Origin: a virus
Taxonomy: Duplodnaviria > Caudoviricetes
Length of the DNA stretch: 64,000 nucleotides
Virus record (IMG/VR): IMGVR_UViG_3300032303_001959
Span: 1 to 64,000 of that record
Direction: 5' to 3' (one strand)
Both the position numbers and the translations under genes were made by a program. This document shows, piece by piece, positions 1-54,011 of the stretch. The notes below the pieces were generated by a model. It had not been told where the DNA came from and ran no database searches. It was given only the letters and a program-made list of their open reading frames with translations. The first letter of the stretch is position 1, and every line of letters begins with the position of its first letter.

Positions 1-3000
1 ATAGGTATTCCGGCTTGTCTTATATCTTTCCGTAGCTGAGATGCCCGGCTCTGCGCATCGACGACTTCCTGCTCGTATTGACGAAGCGTTTCGCGGACCT
101 TTTCAGCATCCGAGAACTCCTGCATATCATTGCGTACAAGCTCTTGAAGTATTCCTTCATACCGCTCTCTTGCGATCTGACTAAGAACAGCCGGTTCAAT
201 GAAAGAGGACGGAACGCCAGGCAGTGCCCCGAATATCGAGTTAAGGAGCTTACCACTGAGAAAGCCCTTACCCTTTCCAGCATCTCCAATTTGCGACTCT
301 TCTTTAAGTTTGACGGTGGGAAACAAAATATCCAACTGGGCGTTGCTTTTGCCGTTGTACATGGAAGGGCGGTAACCCGAAGTAAACCCAAAACCCTCCC
401 GCATAACGATGTCATGTACAGCTCGCTGGATGAAAGGAAGGCTTTCGCGGTATTTAGCCATCTGCTGGATAAACGCCTCGTACTTCTTCCTGCGTTTGTC
501 TTTGGTTGGTAGTGTTTCATATTTGTCTAGCTCCGTATCGTAGGCTTCGCTTGCTAAACCTCTCTGCGCGTCATAATCATTGCCCATTTCATCGGGGGAG
601 AAGGCCGCGTCGAAGGTACTTGATATGCTTTCCCCCGCTTTAACTTCTTCAGTCTTACCCTCCAGAGAGATAAACGACTGCTCGTTTATTTTCATATTGC
701 TTGCGATGCCAACAACCCTTCTTGCTAAACCATCAACACCACCGTAGCCCTCAACGGACATGGCGGTCACAAAACCGTAAAGTGTATTTGTCGGACGTGA
801 TTCGTTTAAATAGTCATCGCCAAACTGCTCTCGCATATCTTCATATTCGGAAAGTATCTTGTTAAACACGGCGTTAAGCTTTGCGCCGTCTGCTTGTTTG
901 CTCTGTAGAAGGGTTTCAATAATCACCCTGCGCATCAGCTCGCTATCCTTAAAGGCTTCTGTCTGGTTGATGTTCAGGTTATCGACCAGGTTGTTTGCCT
1001 CCTGCTCCGGGATTCCGCTTTTCTTAACACGGCTTAGGAAATGCTCTCTTGGACGACCGGAAGTATTTGGAAACTTTCTTAGAACTCCAGCATTCCAACC
1101 CTTGGTCGTATCATTGCTATCTACCGGGCTGTACACCACACCGCTGTTAAATACGTTAACCGCATCTTCAATGAGTCTCGGCAACAGACGAAGTTCATCT
1201 GCATCGAAAGCTCCCTCATTAATAGCCTGCTGGAAGCGAGCCTCGACATTTTCAAGGAATAGATAGTTCTGCTTCTCCCTTGTCTTTAGACTCATTATGT
1301 TCGCGAGCCCCTTCTCCAATGTTTCACGCGTCTTGCCAAATCCGTCTAGGTAGGACTGGGCGACGGTTTGAAGCAAAAGAACTCGGTTCTTAATTTCGTC
1401 GTCCGAGAAAGTAGTGTCGTCTAATGAAAGAGCATCGACCCCTGCCTTTCTTTTTTCCCGCAACCACTCGTTGATGTTATTACCCAGATCAATAGCCTGC
1501 TCGCGGGTCATTGAAGCAATCTCTCCCGTGGTCATCCTTCTGGCCCCATAAGGTAGCTGACCAATCCACTCCCCCTTAGCCTGATCGTAAACCCCGGTCA
1601 GGTAAATGCCGTCGTCGGTAGCATCAAAGGAAACTACATTTTGAAGCGCCTGAAGCTGTTGGTTAAACTCAATGACATCCCTTGAAACAAGAACAGGACC
1701 ACTAGATCCCTTGATTGTATTTAATATATTCTGGTATGTGCTGGTCAGATCCTGAATCGTAATACCCTTTGGCAGAAAGATGTATTGGCCCAGCTTGTCT
1801 TGCTCTGCAGCAACGGCGGTAGCGGCTTGGAGACTCTCTTCCTCAGATGTCACTTCGACTGACGGCCGCTGTGGGAGCGGAGCCTTATCTCCCATATACT
1901 CACCAGTACGAGGATCTGTAATCCCTGTAACAATTGCGTAACCATCCTTGGTCGTGACAGGCATCTCTTTGCCAGTTGTTCTGGCGATATAAGATATCTT
2001 TGGCAGAACTACCATCCGAACATACTTACCCTCGGGGTCAGCTTTGCGGATCAACTCGGCTTTTTCTGGCGAGATCAGCATATTCAATCTAGCCGACTTA
2101 ACTTCTTTAGCGCCTTCGGTTGGTTCAAGGAGTTTTCCATACTCAACCCCGCCCATCCCACGACTAACCTCTCCAGCGCCCTTTTGAGTTTCGGTTGTCG
2201 CAATAGATTCGTCCGCAAGTCCTTCTTCAAACCTACGCTCGCCCTCACTCAGTTGCTTATTAACGGAAGGGATGGCTTCTCCGGCAGCGTTAAACGCCGG
2301 TACCGTATCCCCAACCGATCCAACACCACCGCCCACGATATCATCTGGGGATTGAGCAAAGGTTTTCTTTAACCCGAAGTTGTTTTCTTCTTTGCTCCCT
2401 AATTCAATATCCTTATTGAACTCATTCTCCTGGAGAGCAAAGAAAGGTTGAAGTAGTCTGTAAAATACGTCTGTAAAGTCCTTAGATAACCCAGCCACAG
2501 GAGCTTCGGATGTTACAATACCAAATGCTGTTTTCATCTCGGTAACCATGATGCTGTCGCCGTGCCTGACGACACCGGTGAAGATGCCGGGGTATGCCCG
2601 CACAAACTGAATAGTGTCCTGATCTGCAATAACTACGGGTTCGCCACGGCTTAATTTCTCGGACACATCCAAAGCAAACCTGCCCCTCCAGTCAGCTCTC
2701 GCGATTTCACCAAGCAATCCTTTGGACTGCGCCCAGCTTAAATCTTGGAGTTCTTCTGGCGTGAGGCTTTTTTGGGCTGCCATTTCGCGAGAATCAAAAG
2801 CTTTAAGCGAAGTTGTCGGGTGGAGAACGTCGGTATCTGGAACAATATTCACACCCCCAGCGTTCGGGATAAACCGGTTTCTAAAGGAGAACGGCAATAC
2901 TCGCAGTACCTGCCCCTTATTGTCGTACAAGTAAAGTGAGTTGGGTTTAAATTGCTTTTCTAGGCTGCCTTCTTCCGTAAGCCCCGCGGTATCCGCGGGT

Positions 3001-6000
3001 GTAAACTTGGCCACAACTGGGCTGACTGAGCCCGTAAGTTCACCCTTAGCAAAGGTTTGAACTTGGTCGGGAGTAAAAGAAACGGAGCCAACACCCGGCA
3101 AGAAAAGGTTGAGGTTGGCCAATGACCCAGCACGAGGGTCTCTTGCAATCGCTTTGGCAAGCATCTTCATGTAGGTGCCTGGTTGGTTTAGCGCATACGT
3201 GTTTTCATCTCGAACGGCCAAATACATCTCCGAAGCAATCTTCTCATTTTCCGCATAGTCTTTAACGATATTGAGAGCTTCCTTAAGAAGGTTTTGGCTG
3301 GCCTTTGTGGGTTTTGTACCTGGTTTAAAAGCGTTTACGGTATTAAAGGCGTCCTGAAGAGTAGTGACTTGTTGAGGGGTTAGGTTTTTTAACACCGGGA
3401 ACGACTTTTTACGCATGCGCTCCGGATCGTTGTCAAAAAGCACGGCCTCAATATGTTTAGCTAGATCCTCATTCGGCACGGCCACTTGCGGCCCACCTTT
3501 AAATACCTGGCTCATGTAACTCGACTCAATCTCTGTAGAGTCTTTAGTTACTTTTGCGTTATTGTTTTTAGTTAAAGGAACTACGGCTGACTCTGGTAGG
3601 CTTGGATCTTTCGGACCACCCCACCAAGTCTCAGCCTGTGCTCCAATCGGCCTTGCCGCCTCTTCCGGGGGAGCAAGTAAAGTAGCCGCGTCAACCTCAG
3701 TCACCTGTCCGCTGGCTTTAGCCTGGGTAACTACTTCGGTTTCGCGCTCGTAGATCTTTGAGATAGTTCTCTTGTAATCAGGCGACACGGGCGAGAAGTA
3801 ATCAAGATCGACAAGATATTGTTTACCTATTGCGTTTTTCGCTTCAATCGTCTGAGGGTTAGTTTGGGATAGCTTGGCGGCCGTCTCCGTGTCTACATCG
3901 GTGCCAATCTCATACACTCCGTTAACACGGACAAGAAACGTCCCCTTCTTGGAATTTGCAAAAGCTGTGAACGGAAACGAAGAAAGCTTGGTAATGCCTC
4001 CCGGGGCTACGGCAGGATTGTAAACTGTGCCCGATTTGGGAGTACCTACGATCTCTCTGCGTCGCTCGACCTTTTCGGAGTTAGCGGCAGACAATAGTTC
4101 CCGGGCTTGACGCTCACTTAGGATAATACCCCGAAGCGACTTCTTTCCTTTATTAAGAATACGGTCAGCTAGAGATATATCTTTATCAGAATCATTGGGG
4201 TCCAAGGCTTGAGCCTCACCAAGCGTGCGATCTAGATTTGGGATAGAGGCGCTCCTTGTGGATTTCTTGCCCCGCGAAACGCTGACTCTACTTACAGGGG
4301 CTGTTGCGCCAGGGAAAATATTATGAGCGGTGCTGCTCAAGAATCTTACGTTGGCTGGGATTTTGGTTCCGGCAAAAATAGCCCGCTCTTGACTACCCGA
4401 GAATGTATGCGGGTACGCTCCGAACATAAGCATAAACTCTTTTCCGGGGTTGGCCTTGGCATGATCAAAGAACCTCTGCATCTCAATCTTAGCGGACCTC
4501 GGATTAAATGTTTCGCCCTTACCCTGCCTGTTATTCTTTCCTTCCGGCCCCTTGTAGTTCCTATCAAAGATTGGAAGAGCATACGTTCTGCCATTTGCTC
4601 CTGTCTTTCCTTTTTCAGCGCCTAGCTGTTGGGCGATCGGTCCAAATACTTTGTCATGATTACCCTGAACATCTGTTCCAAATACCAATACACGATCGTT
4701 GGCTGCCGGATCTACATTTTGGTCAAAAGCAGATAAGAGCTCTTGAGCGCTTTCTTGGCGGGATGTGTATCTGGTGGCCGGTATTGCCTTAGCGATAATG
4801 CTTCCGGGGGAAGCAGAACCAGCATAATCCATTCCGGATGCCTTGCGTCTAGCGTTTGCTTCAGTATTCAGTTCACGTGAAGCTTGATCCTTCGGAATCG
4901 AACCAAGCGTCTGAAACAACTCCCTAGCAGTATCCGTAGCCTCACGATTGATTGCTTCCCTGTTCTTGCCGGTGGTCCGAACTGCTGTGTCCTGTGGACC
5001 GATGATAGTGAAGTTTGCTTTGTCTGGGTTGGCTTTAATGTGCTCCAGGACTCTTGGGATAAGAACATCAGCGCTACGACCTTCAATAAGTGTTTTACCT
5101 TGATCTAAAGCATAGTTTCTTGAGCGAGCCTGCCCAACATCGTTCTTAAGTGTCTCATCGTTTCCGATCACAATAACAAAATCCGAGCTATCGATATTCT
5201 TTTGGTCAGCCTCGTCGGGGTTAGTTGTCGTATCGTAGTCCGAATGAAGCTCTTCTTCTTGCTGGTTTGTCGCCACCTTGTAACCGCCACGTTTAACCCC
5301 GTGCTGTTCTGCCAAAGATTCCGCGACAGATGCAAAAGGCCCAAACGCACTACCGTGATACGTAAAGACGCCCTCGCTCTTTGGCTTCTGCATATTTTCT
5401 TCTGGAGCTCCAGTTTTAACGGGAGCACCAACTTCATCCAAAGTATCGACATTGACCACATCCGGCCCGTTAAGAGCATCGTTAACTTCAGGAGTACTGG
5501 CCTCCCCAGGAACCGGTGCTTGAGCATTAGCGGCTTTCTGAGCTTCTTTCGCCACTGCACTTGGCGCCACTCTTGGCGCACCAAACTGACCTTTTTGTTT
5601 ATCAGCCTGGATTGTGGGGGCGCTGGTCTGACTTGGAAATAAAGCGTTGGTCTTAGACTTCTCTTGAGCCGCCTGTTCGGTCTGCGGAATAAGAGTACGG
5701 GCTCCGCCGAGGCCAAGCTCAACCATACCAGGAACCATTTCACCAATGAACTCTGCCCAAGCGTCAGCTGGATTAGACTGTTCGCCAATCACAGCACTGC
5801 CAGCAACTTCACCTGCCGCGCCCAACATACCTTGCAAAGCCGCGTCTCCAATACCACGAGCCGCTAGGCCCTTGAGCCCTTTAGCTGTTTTGAAAAGCAT
5901 AGACGAGGGAAGCGCAACAGAGGCCGCATCAAATGCACCTACCGTAATTCCACGAGCAAGCGCCCTGTCTTTAATCTGCTGCACTTTTTGTGGGTCGCGA

Positions 6001-6674
6001 AGAATTGCTGCTACGGCTTCGGTGTTCTGAAGATCGCCAGTTTGTTCGCGGAGATCTTCAAGAACTTTTGAACCCCCTTCAACAAAAGCTGATCCAGCCC
6101 CGACACCGGCCATGGTAGCTAGAAGGACGGCTTCTTTTTCACCGCCCGCAGCCCTAGCACTTAAACTACCAGCTGCGCCTAAGGCCATGCCAGGGACGCT
6201 TGAGCCTAAACCTTGAGCAGCAATAAGCGCCGCAGCTTCTGGGTTTGTGAAAATGTTTAGCACTGGCGACCACCAGCTATCCCCACCAGCCTTTTGATAT
6301 TTGAGCATCGATCGAGCAACGGGCTGCGCTTGAAGCTCTCTTTCTTGCTCCGCAATCTCGGCGGCAGCCTGATCAGGGTCTTCAAGCCCGTTGATAGCCC
6401 TAAGGGCTTTAGCGGCCTGCATCGAAGAGGACATTCCGTTTAAGAATTCGTCCTTCATTCTTCCAAAGGTAGATCTCGGGTCGGGTTGCAGTTTTAACGC
6501 GGTCTTCGCCGAGTTTACGTCTTGTTTAGCTTTGACGTATTGCTGCATGTTAAAGTTGCCGGGCCTGAAGGCATCTTCATGCATGGCCGCTTCATATAGG
6601 TTAAGAAGCTCTTCCTGTTGATCAGGATCAGCCCCCTTGAACTTTTCGTTCTGAAGGATATCTGAGATTTGCAT
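1..6674 (-). CDS. Giant internal virion/ejection protein (>2,224 aa, 3' end outside window), polyvalent-type, with SLOG-like and A1S_2505/macro-like domains
   Basis: Manual translation: ATG at 6674 (MQISDILQNEKFKGADPDQQEELL...) stays open to base 1. Absent from the ORF track, probably because it has no stop in the window. Follows two ejection-protein-like genes; has an Ala/Gly-rich hydrophobic N-terminal region typical of podovirus core proteins. Confidence 0.85.
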   Translation of the reverse strand, partial: MQISDILQNEKFKGADPDQQEELLNLYEAAMHEDAFRPGNFNMQQYVKAKQDVNSAKTALKLQPDPRSTFGRMKDEFLNGMSSSMQAAKALRAINGLEDPDQAAAEIAEQERELQAQPVARSMLKYQKAGGDSWWSPVLNIFTNPEAAALIAAQGLGSSVPGMALGAAGSLSARAAGGEKEAVLLATMAGVGAGSAFVEGGSKVLEDLREQTGDLQNTEAVAAILRDPQKVQQIKDRALARGITVGAFDAASVALPSSMLFKTAKGLKGLAARGIGDAALQGMLGAAGEVAGSAVIGEQSNPADAWAEFIGEMVPGMVELGLGGARTLIPQTEQAAQEKSKTNALFPSQTSAPTIQADKQKGQFGAPRVAPSAVAKEAQKAANAQAPVPGEASTPEVNDALNGPDVVNVDTLDEVGAPVKTGAPEENMQKPKSEGVFTYHGSAFGPFASVAESLAEQHGVKRGGYKVATNQQEEELHSDYDTTTNPDEADQKNIDSSDFVIVIGNDETLKNDVGQARSRNYALDQGKTLIEGRSADVLIPRVLEHIKANPDKANFTIIGPQDTAVRTTGKNREAINREATDTARELFQTLGSIPKDQASRELNTEANARRKASGMDYAGSASPGSIIAKAIPATRYTSRQESAQELLSAFDQNVDPAANDRVLVFGTDVQGNHDKVFGPIAQQLGAEKGKTGANGRTYALPIFDRNYKGPEGKNNRQGKGETFNPRSAKIEMQRFFDHAKANPGKEFMLMFGAYPHTFSGSQERAIFAGTKIPANVRFLSSTAHNIFPGATAPVSRVSVSRGKKSTRSASIPNLDRTLGEAQALDPNDSDKDISLADRILNKGKKSLRGIILSERQARELLSAANSEKVERRREIVGTPKSGTVYNPAVAPGGITKLSSFPFTAFANSKKGTFLVRVNGVYEIGTDVDTETAAKLSQTNPQTIEAKNAIGKQYLVDLDYFSPVSPDYKRTISKIYERETEVVTQAKASGQVTEVDAATLLAPPEEAARPIGAQAETWWGGPKDPSLPESAVVPLTKNNNAKVTKDSTEIESSYMSQVFKGGPQVAVPNEDLAKHIEAVLFDNDPERMRKKSFPVLKNLTPQQVTTLQDAFNTVNAFKPGTKPTKASQNLLKEALNIVKDYAENEKIASEMYLAVRDENTYALNQPGTYMKMLAKAIARDPRAGSLANLNLFLPGVGSVSFTPDQVQTFAKGELTGSVSPVVAKFTPADTAGLTEEGSLEKQFKPNSLYLYDNKGQVLRVLPFSFRNRFIPNAGGVNIVPDTDVLHPTTSLKAFDSREMAAQKSLTPEELQDLSWAQSKGLLGEIARADWRGRFALDVSEKLSRGEPVVIADQDTIQFVRAYPGIFTGVVRHGDSIMVTEMKTAFGIVTSEAPVAGLSKDFTDVFYRLLQPFFALQENEFNKDIELGSKEENNFGLKKTFAQSPDDIVGGGVGSVGDTVPAFNAAGEAIPSVNKQLSEGERRFEEGLADESIATTETQKGAGEVSRGMGGVEYGKLLEPTEGAKEVKSARLNMLISPEKAELIRKADPEGKYVRMVVLPKISYIARTTGKEMPVTTKDGYAIVTGITDPRTGEYMGDKAPLPQRPSVEVTSEEESLQAATAVAAEQDKLGQYIFLPKGITIQDLTSTYQNILNTIKGSSGPVLVSRDVIEFNQQLQALQNVVSFDATDDGIYLTGVYDQAKGEWIGQLPYGARRMTTGEIASMTREQAIDLGNNINEWLREKRKAGVDALSLDDTTFSDDEIKNRVLLLQTVAQSYLDGFGKTRETLEKGLANIMSLKTREKQNYLFLENVEARFQQAINEGAFDADELRLLPRLIEDAVNVFNSGVVYSPVDSNDTTKGWNAGVLRKFPNTSGRPREHFLSRVKKSGIPEQEANNLVDNLNINQTEAFKDSELMRRVIIETLLQSKQADGAKLNAVFNKILSEYEDMREQFGDDYLNESRPTNTLYGFVTAMSVEGYGGVDGLARRVVGIASNMKINEQSFISLEGKTEEVKAGESISSTFDAAFSPDEMGNDYDAQRGLASEAYDTELDKYETLPTKDKRRKKYEAFIQQMAKYRESLPFIQRAVHDIVMREGFGFTSGYRPSMYNGKSNAQLDILFPTVKLKEESQIGDAGKGKGFLSGKLLNSIFGALPGVPSSFIEPAVLSQIARERYEGILQELVRNDMQEFSDAEKVRETLRQYEQEVVDAQSRASQLRKDIRQAGIP

Positions 6675-52730: not shown

Positions 52731-52819
52731 TGTTTGAAACAGTATACTGACAGCGTTTAGTCAGCAAGAAAAATAAATTAAATTTTTCTCATACGTGTAT
52801 CTATAGAACTTAAACTAAA

Positions 52820-52842
52820 GGGGGGGAGGGTGGGTGTGGGGG
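52820..52842 (+). other. G-quadruplex-type tract G7-A-G3-T-G3-TGT-G5
   Basis: Read directly from the sequence; intergenic, at the switch to the plus-strand early region. Confidence 0.75.
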
Positions 52843-52961
52843 TAGTTGCCCAACATTAAGCAGTTACACCGCCCCGCAGCCTATTTGTATTATTAGCAGA
52901 GAGAGAAGGGAACCAGATGGATCCCTGTATCTCAAAACCCCTGCTATAGATAGGAGACACC

Positions 52962-53285
52962 ATGGCATATGATACCCAAACCGTAGCAGCTCAAACCGCA
53001 ACAACTTACGCACCGAAGAACGATGCGTTGTACTTGACGGTGAAGCGGAGCAAGTTCGGCCACCTCGGCACGATCAACCCCAGCTCGAACAACGGCTCGG
53101 AGCAGGCCGCTGCTCTCGCCGCCCTGGCGAAGATCGCCCTCAGTGGCAAGAGCTTGGACATCAGCGTTCGCACGTCGAAGGACGATGCGGAGAACCTCAC
53201 CCTGCGCTTCTCGGTGAGTTCGTTCGTTCCGCAGCAGCGGACGTCGTTGGCAGAGCGGCTCGTGACCGCTCACCTCAATAGCTAA
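52962..53285 (+). CDS. First early-region gene, unknown function
   Basis: AGGAGA RBS, strongly GC3-biased codons, 107 aa. Confidence 0.75.
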   Translation: MAYDTQTVAAQTATTYAPKNDALYLTVKRSKFGHLGTINPSSNNGSEQAAALAALAKIALSGKSLDISVRTSKDDAENLTLRFSVSSFVPQQRTSLAERLVTAHLNS

Positions 53286-53292
53286 TTGAGGC

Positions 53293-53546
53293 TCCGGACC
53301 TCGTGGGGACTGCAAACCCACGAGGAACGGTTTATAATCAGTGGACGGTGAACGATGTAAGTAAGAGCCATGCTAACTCTTAAACGCATCCTGCAAGGGA
53401 TGTGAGATATCAAATGAGGATTAGGCTCGCAAGGCAGCTCTGAGAGGAGTTGAAAAGGTTATGTACAAACCGTACCTGCTTACATCGTTCACCCTTCATT
53501 GATCTCGTGGGACAGTAAAACCACGAGGAACGGTTTATTAAACCGT
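53293..53546 (+). ncRNA. Candidate structured ncRNA
   Basis: Perfect 15-bp helix (53347-61 with 53479-93) enclosing GCAA and GAGA tetraloop hairpins, flanked by two homologous hairpins. Confidence 0.65.
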
Positions 53547-53549
53547 AGG

Positions 53550-54011
53550 CTACACAGTGATAACTGGATTACTGGCAGTTACTGACACCGAATCTTGTGG
53601 AAGTTGTTGTAAAACCGCAATGTTCACTGTTTGAGTTTTCGAGCCTTCCGACAAGCCAAAAGCTGTCGTTGCCACACGATTCACCTTTTCCAATGCAGTA
53701 AAGTGTTCTTCAACTTCGCCGCGGGTAGCTGGGGCTTCTGCCTCAAGCGCATTCATCCCGCCTTCAACCTGTTTCTTTAACCTTACTAGATATGATTGGG
53801 CTTCACCCACCATTTCTGTCGTTGCAACACGATGCGCTTCTGCCACTCGTTGCAGAGATTGCTGCTTGTAAGTTGCAAGTTTGAAACGCGCAACGTGACT
53901 GCGTATCGACGCAGCATTCACGTTGAATCTAGTAGCTAATATCTGAGGTGGAATACCTTTCGCGTATTCCGCTTCGATCGGACCCCAATCAATCACTGAA
54001 CGCTGTCTCAT
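53550..54011 (-). CDS. terS: Terminase small subunit-like HTH protein
   Basis: IDWGPIEAEYAKG...LATRFNVNAASIRSHV HTH, helical core, extended C-terminal tail; TTGCAA-17-TACAAT promoter upstream. Confidence 0.6.
   Translation of the reverse strand: MRQRSVIDWGPIEAEYAKGIPPQILATRFNVNAASIRSHVARFKLATYKQQSLQRVAEAHRVATTEMVGEAQSYLVRLKKQVEGGMNALEAEAPATRGEVEEHFTALEKVNRVATTAFGLSEGSKTQTVNIAVLQQLPQDSVSVTASNPVITV

Follow-up and report, generated by a model that had tools for sequence, protein, structure and literature searches.

The junction between two convergent genes of a freshwater phage is hypervariable and holds an optional cassette that is swapped by recombination. In the window, the 64,000-nucleotide stretch of viral DNA that was analysed, this junction lies between a plus-strand gene for a 107-aa protein and a minus-strand gene for a 153-aa protein. 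Our preferred reading, held tentatively and at a little less than an even chance, is that the cassette is a plus-strand structured RNA, an "RNA moron" swapped by recombination, which may serve in trans in an accessory role.

Genomic setting and turnover of the cassette

The window belongs to a 72.8-kb IMG/VR virus record. The phage, of ~73 kb and integrase-bearing, encodes a tyrosine integrase, a helicase, a family-A DNA polymerase, rIIA, a large terminase and a giant virion protein. INPHARED held no match to the region by blastn or to the giant virion ORF by tblastn (50,697 phage records), and thus no cultured relative; an N4-like identity of the phage was unsupported. An ORF of more than 2224 aa (window 3-6674, minus strand) runs off base 1 of the record. 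The "direct terminal repeat" of the record therefore falls within a gene, and it probably reflects overlapping assembly ends of a genome that is circularly permuted or circularised.

Searches of the two flanking proteins against Pfam, PHROGs, NCBIfam, PDB and Atlas gave nothing past an HTH lead. The downstream 153-aa gene had been taken for terS, with the element ending head-to-head with it. Element and gene are instead arranged tail-to-tail, and terS is a putative label, for which the sole grounds are an HTH and a weak lead, from a language model, to Terminase_5. The large terminase lies 21 kb from this gene. The upstream 107-aa protein belongs to a narrow family (66-96% identity, 16 clusters, no distant relatives), and its AlphaFold model (pLDDT 55) was too poor for a structure search. 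Its gene has a GC content of 59.6%, against 48.3% for the genome, and therefore looks like acquired cargo itself. A G-rich tract (52820-52846), a seven-G run followed by GAGGGTGGGTGTGGGGG in which a G-quadruplex is possible, sits in the 190-nt leader between a promoter-like palindrome (52745-66) and the 107-aa gene. The features of the locus are as follows.

52745-52774 (plus strand): nearest upstream promoter-like site, a consensus match only
52962-53285 (plus strand): upstream ORFan gene for the 107-aa protein, present in all relatives with or without a cassette
53273-53291 (plus strand): hairpin H0 (CCTCAAT/ATTGAGG, 7 bp), across the stop codon of the 107-aa gene
53299-53335 (plus strand): resident hairpin H1 with a 9-bp stem and the loop GACTGCAAA, plus the linker AACGGTTTAT; in every empty site
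53336-53538 (plus strand): 203-nt insertion comprising the RNA core (cassette A, variant V1) and its own hairpin-linker copy; absent from 31 relatives
53338-53363 (plus strand): 5' strands of P0 (53338-45) and P1 (53347-63), with the mismatched C53346 between them
53363-53434 (plus strand): variable 5' interior, with the AAGAG/CTCTT hairpin, hairpin B (53386-403), a single-stranded stretch and the weak hairpin C
53435-53460 (plus strand): conserved hairpin D, with a GGCAG-led stem, a GAGA loop and two G·U pairs, followed by the conserved AAAAGGTT
53456-53476 (plus strand): variable hairpin E, short type
53477-53502 (plus strand): 3' strands of P1 (53477-93) and P0 (53495-502)
53504-53538 (plus strand): cassette-borne hairpin H2 with a 7-bp stem and the loop GACAGTAAAA, plus the linker GAACGGTTTAT; 87% identical to the H1 unit
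53530-53546 (no strand): resident perfect 17-bp palindrome, ACGGTTTA-T-TAAACCGT
53550-54011 (minus strand): convergent gene for the 153-aa HTH protein

The two flanking proteins were used to find relatives in IMG/VR, JGI metagenomes and ENA/Logan assemblies, and 52 contigs could be classified. The site was empty in 31 of them, consisting of hairpin H1, the linker GAACGGTTTAT and the 17-bp palindrome, and a complete cassette A was present in 19, with one further copy cut by the contig end. A second structured module, module B, was found in three contigs, either alone or after cassette A, and a cassette with an 88-aa ORF in one. Because the 31 empty sites hold one hairpin and the palindrome only, the stretch 53336-53538 was identified as a cassette with its own hairpin-linker copy. 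Two homologous hairpins had been described as bracketing the element; both exist, and the left one, being resident in empty sites, is not part of it.

The window's exact 153-aa allele adjoins empty, V1, V5+B or ORF states among the relatives, and its exact 107-aa allele adjoins V1, V3b, B-only or empty states. As the same flanking alleles occur with at least four states each, turnover of the cassette is fast relative to point mutation. Each genome with the element carries one copy, at the same site each time, and complete relatives whose site is empty lack the element throughout. The original prediction had suggested an RNP with the 107-aa protein or a packaging-associated RNA. The gene for that protein adjoins all 31 empty sites and the element is therefore not tied to it; an essential packaging role is excluded by the complete relatives that lack the element altogether.

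The element family is limited to one locus in one narrow phage clade. Exact-pattern scans of IMG/VR with both element ends and the linker returned this clade and, otherwise, chance matches without the hairpin; in the window and in these scans the linker was restricted to this locus. A scan of 185,579 species genomes found no element, returning a single 20-mer match at chance level. This match lies in a Deltaproteobacteria MAG (L044:2140-2205), where an intrinsic terminator hairpin contains a 20-mer identical to part of the P1/P0 3' strand; no other part of the element is present. In more distant relatives of the phage (L007-L009) the corresponding position is occupied by a canonical U-tract terminator, and the element is missing.

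Every cassette junction could be placed inside the 8 nt CGGTTTAT, at the centre of the perfect 17-bp palindrome. This clustering would be expected if the locus were a site acting at the DNA level, either a stem with a variable tip that folds in single-stranded DNA in the manner of attC or a protein-binding, packaging or origin site. The stem with its hypervariable tip does recall attC, and folded single-stranded DNA also tolerates G·T wobbles. By inspection, however, the ends of the element (AATCAGT... and ...CATTGAT) and the linker depart from the R''/R' consensus of attC (RYYYAAC ... GTTRRRY), which led us to reject an integron origin, and the sole integrase of the phage is a tyrosine recombinase with a generic Phage_integrase match, 20 kb from the element. 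Since the element is dispensable in complete genomes, it is neither a pac site nor an origin. A DNA-level site is accordingly considered very improbable.

Protein-coding cargo can enter the site as well, as the 88-aa ORF demonstrates. This cassette (L047:1982-2248, minus strand of the locus) has its own AAGGAG ribosome-binding site, lies in the palindrome with its junction at the equivalent of window 53538/53539, and is bracketed by the 13-nt direct repeat CGGTTTATTAAAC; its product matched no Pfam or NCBIfam family. Module B (L061:1575-1728; L006:1182-1335, minus strand; L048:1973-2109, minus strand) is non-coding and was predicted to fold into a three-way junction followed by a CTCGTAGGCCACGAG hairpin and an H-type hairpin. 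Compensatory changes in the closing helix distinguish the two versions in which it was found.

Constant scaffold and swapped interiors

Folding analyses confirmed that the folded element is real. The plus-strand RNA was predicted to fold with a free energy of -114 kcal/mol (z -7.76), which 0 of 200 shuffles equalled, and the minus strand with -93.9 kcal/mol (z -5.08). The 15-bp closing helix described earlier (53347-61 with 53479-93) was found exactly and extends to 17 bp (53347-63 with 53477-93). Outside it lies the outer helix P0, of 8-9 bp with two G·U pairs (53338-45 with 53495-502). All the other helices, loops and repeats listed in the original prediction were found in the sequence as well. 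Within the closing helix these are the AAGAG/CTCTT hairpin (53363-81), a 7-bp hairpin with a GCAA cap (53386-403), a weak hairpin containing GCAA (53425-35), a hairpin with a GAGA cap (53435-52) and a last small hairpin formed by GGTT/AACC or AGGT/ACCT (53456-76). The repeated hairpin units of ~35 nt (53299-335 and 53504-538) have a common 18-mer that occurs at these two sites only in the window. The confident helices of V1 contain ~7 G·U pairs and no A·C pair. A proposed pseudoknot or switch between ACGGTTT and AAACCGT was not supported, the pairing partner being missing from variants V3-V5; in the window AAACCGT lies at 53467-73 rather than from 53468.

Cassette A was recovered at lengths of 137, 149, 167, 199 and 243/244 nt, as six structural or length variants with nine distinct sequences. 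P0, P1, the GGCAG-led hairpin D, AAAGGUU and the P1 3' strand are common to all of them, and 23 pairs of P0/P1 are formed in every distinct sequence (207/207 cells). The 5' interior, by comparison, is unrelated in sequence from one variant group to another, and hairpin E exists in two types, short in V1 and TGTGG..CCACA in V3-V5. Some variants are mosaic, V5 consisting of a V1-type head with a V3-type hairpin E; V6 is V1 minus hairpin B. The helix statistics were computed module by module, since MAFFT failed to align the swapped interiors and hairpin D correctly across variant groups.

The substitutions seen in shared helices all preserve pairing. In P1, an A-U pair became G-C in three sequences and G·U in four; in hairpin D the changes were U-A to C-G, U·G to A-U, and G·U/C-G to G-C/U·G; in hairpin E, U·G to A-U; and in one interior helix, C-G to U-A. 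These compensatory and wobble changes are valid on the plus strand only. In each of the nine distinct variants, moreover, the plus strand had the better minimum free energy, by 7-20 kcal/mol relative to the minus strand. Scored against unbiased single-sequence folds, the V3/V4 substitutions disrupted fewer pairs than if they had been placed at random, but the difference was weak (P = 0.013 and 0.16). Enrichment of the motif TGCAA was marginal. Outside the core, the stem of the resident H1 covaries (U-A, U·G, C-G) around an invariant loop, and H0 shows a C-G to U-A change in two contigs (L037 and L110). In another contig (L100) the intergenic region is almost unaltered where identity of the 107-aa protein falls to 66%. 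The near-invariance of the scaffold in sequence may reflect recency or common ancestry rather than selection.

The 3' part of the scaffold could alternatively be read as coding. An AAAGG motif is followed by AUG or GUG and a frame of 13-16 codons that ends in ...TSFT(L/F)H-stop (window 53457-53502), and this frame is open in the five main variants despite their differing hairpin E and several compensating indels. However, just 2-3 nt separate the Shine-Dalgarno-like motif from the start, which is itself within hairpin E, and the peptides have unrelated N-termini. It is the P1 3' strand, conserved regardless, that encodes the conserved residues. The frame is probably a by-product of P1 conservation, and the chance that a micro-ORF accounts for the element is slight in the extreme.

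Comparison with known RNAs and mobile elements

Rfam 15, which covers hammerhead, twister, group I/II, 6S, Y RNA, retron and HEARO, gave zero matches in the window at the gathering threshold, the best local matches having E values of 1.1-6.7, far under threshold. Seven loci with other variants and module B yielded nothing at E ≤ 0.5, and ARAGORN detected no tRNA or tmRNA in the element or its variants. The earlier statement that the element resembles no tRNA, tmRNA, intron or hammerhead thus stands. The further proposal of a new RNA class is supported in part: no family matched, and a search for homologues found them, with pairing-preserving changes in their shared helices that fit the plus strand only; the RNP and packaging roles attached to that proposal did not survive.

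Several specific identities were considered and rejected. In retron msr-msd RNAs the 5' and 3' ends pair into a long helix that encloses several hairpins; the element shares both this arrangement and, roughly, the overall size. It differs in that the phage lacks a reverse transcriptase (PF00078 is absent from the entire 72.8-kb genome) and in the lack of an Rfam retron match. A bacterial Y RNA was dismissed as its Ro60 (TROVE) partner, PF05731, is absent. An IS200/IS605-derived element (PATE) was likewise set aside, since the Y1 transposase PF01797 is absent and the left hairpin, H1, is a property of the empty site. A search for antisense targets of the element in the phage genome found none of at least 13 nt, with 12-mers at chance level only, and an antisense regulator of the phage's own genes was rejected on this basis.

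The presence of the cassette in some genomes and its absence from near-identical ones, with no function detectable, would also fit selfish or neutral palindromic DNA, either MITE-like or recombination debris, in which the P0/P1 repeats were the sole selected part and the fold a by-product. P0/P1 do form terminal inverted repeats of 26 bp, imperfect and constant across variants, around unrelated interiors, as a MITE would have. Such an origin is nevertheless unlikely. The element is single-copy at a fixed site, rather than dispersed, and was found neither in IMG/VR outside the clade nor, save for the one chance terminator, in the 185,579 species genomes. No target-site duplication flanks the repeats, where the flanking dinucleotides vary from variant to variant, and there is no transposase. 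In addition, the stem mismatches are all G·U on the plus strand, a bias that would not be favoured in a DNA palindrome. MITE-like and ERIC palindromes share with the element a set of properties: imperfect palindromes in transcribed intergenic DNA (transcription being presumed here), length variants from internal indels, presence or absence between strains, and an RNA fold. The likeness extends to REP-type sequences (PMC3733652); all three groups differ from the element in being multi-copy and dispersed.

A closer parallel is offered by the PeSLs of T4-type phages, composite terminator/promoter stem-loops that flank indels (PMC2839356, PMC4122927). In both cases a repeated short stem-loop with an A/T-rich, -10-like tail brackets optional cargo that is gained, lost or replaced among close phages, and here an H hairpin with GAACGGTTTAT brackets every cassette. 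PeSLs, however, are reiterated at many dispersed sites in hyperplastic regions and carry ORFs, whereas the linker here occurs at this locus only, its cargo is mostly non-coding structured modules and its promoter role is putative. Gain, loss and exchange through linker homology is the mechanism that has been proposed for PeSL motifs (PMC2839356, PMC4122927).

Possible function and significance

The junction makes a perfect TATAAT at 53333-38, which is present in six of the nine distinct sequences, the other three having TACGAAT or TACTAAT. Transcription beginning 7 nt past this motif would start within the conserved, G·U-containing strand of P0. Because the motif is intact in six of nine sequences only and the start would fall within P0, we infer co-transcription with the 107-aa gene, beginning at the promoter-like site 52745-74, rather than transcription from a promoter of the element's own. 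No canonical U-tract terminator was found after the element.

Co-transcription would equally suit a cis-acting 3'-UTR element, serving either as a 3' exonuclease barrier or RNase III site that sets the stability of the mRNA of the 107-aa gene, or as an insulator against read-through into the 153-aa gene. The element always lies directly 3' of the 107-aa ORF on the same strand and sits in a run of hairpins (H0, H1 and the palindrome) without U-tracts, and the search of the phage genome for trans targets yielded none. Such a mode of action has been proposed for REP-type palindromes located in transcribed intergenic DNA (PMC3733652). Against a cis role, 31 of the 52 relatives manage without the element while their flanking genes are identical, and a plain barrier would leave the constant scaffold with its swapped multi-domain interiors, as well as the second module, unexplained. 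We regard a cis role as possible and somewhat unlikely.

For the preferred reading, a recombination-swapped accessory RNA, the following model is proposed. The scaffold of P0+P1 (24-26 bp), hairpin D and AAAGGUU would frame domains that are exchanged between phages. Each cassette would bring its own hairpin and GAACGGTTTAT linker copy, and recombination in the linker or in the resident palindrome, for which the hairpin-linker gives homology, could produce gain, loss or swap of cassettes. The transcript would then be released or stabilised through the long closing helix. The coaxial P0+P1 stack falls in the length class of RNase III, and cleavage in this helix may free or define a compact, multi-branched RNA. 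Such an RNA would act in trans as a dispensable accessory in the phage-host interaction. No partner protein was identified, reverse transcriptase, TROVE and Y1 transposase being absent. A more elaborate version, in which the locus is a hairpin-delimited array of interchangeable RNAs cut at the H hairpins or the long helix, is thought improbable. In that version the RNAs would titrate proteins of the host, either defence or RNA-binding ones, as decoys or sponges, for example by mimicking ncRNAs of retron-type or other defence systems, and phage-phage recombination would diversify their interiors in an arms race.

To our knowledge, phage morons and linker-mediated cassette shuffling have been described almost only for protein genes. 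Prophage small RNAs do occur in moron positions, such as the anti-sRNA AgvB of EHEC prophages (PMC4104026). The element resembles these as small non-coding accessory cargo between phage genes that varies among related viruses. The AgvB-type sRNAs, however, are short, Hfq-dependent and base-pairing, with their own promoter and U-tract terminator, whereas the element has a multi-branched fold of 137-244 nt with a 24-26-bp closing helix and is without a clear promoter or terminator. The locus is thus already known in kind, both as phage cargo exchanged at terminator/promoter-like linkers and as a phage-borne small RNA (PMC4104026). The novelty lies in three features taken together: non-coding structured cassettes arrayed at a single site, a scaffold that stays constant while domains are swapped, and segregation in natural populations.

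The cassettes are carried at intermediate frequency, in ~40% of the sampled contigs, by an abundant freshwater phage lineage. Since the environment already supplies natural knock-outs and domain swaps, function can be tested by comparing variants. If the RNA is expressed, it would constitute a new phage RNA family; if it is not, the locus would still be a clear-cut case of fast recombination at a palindromic junction.
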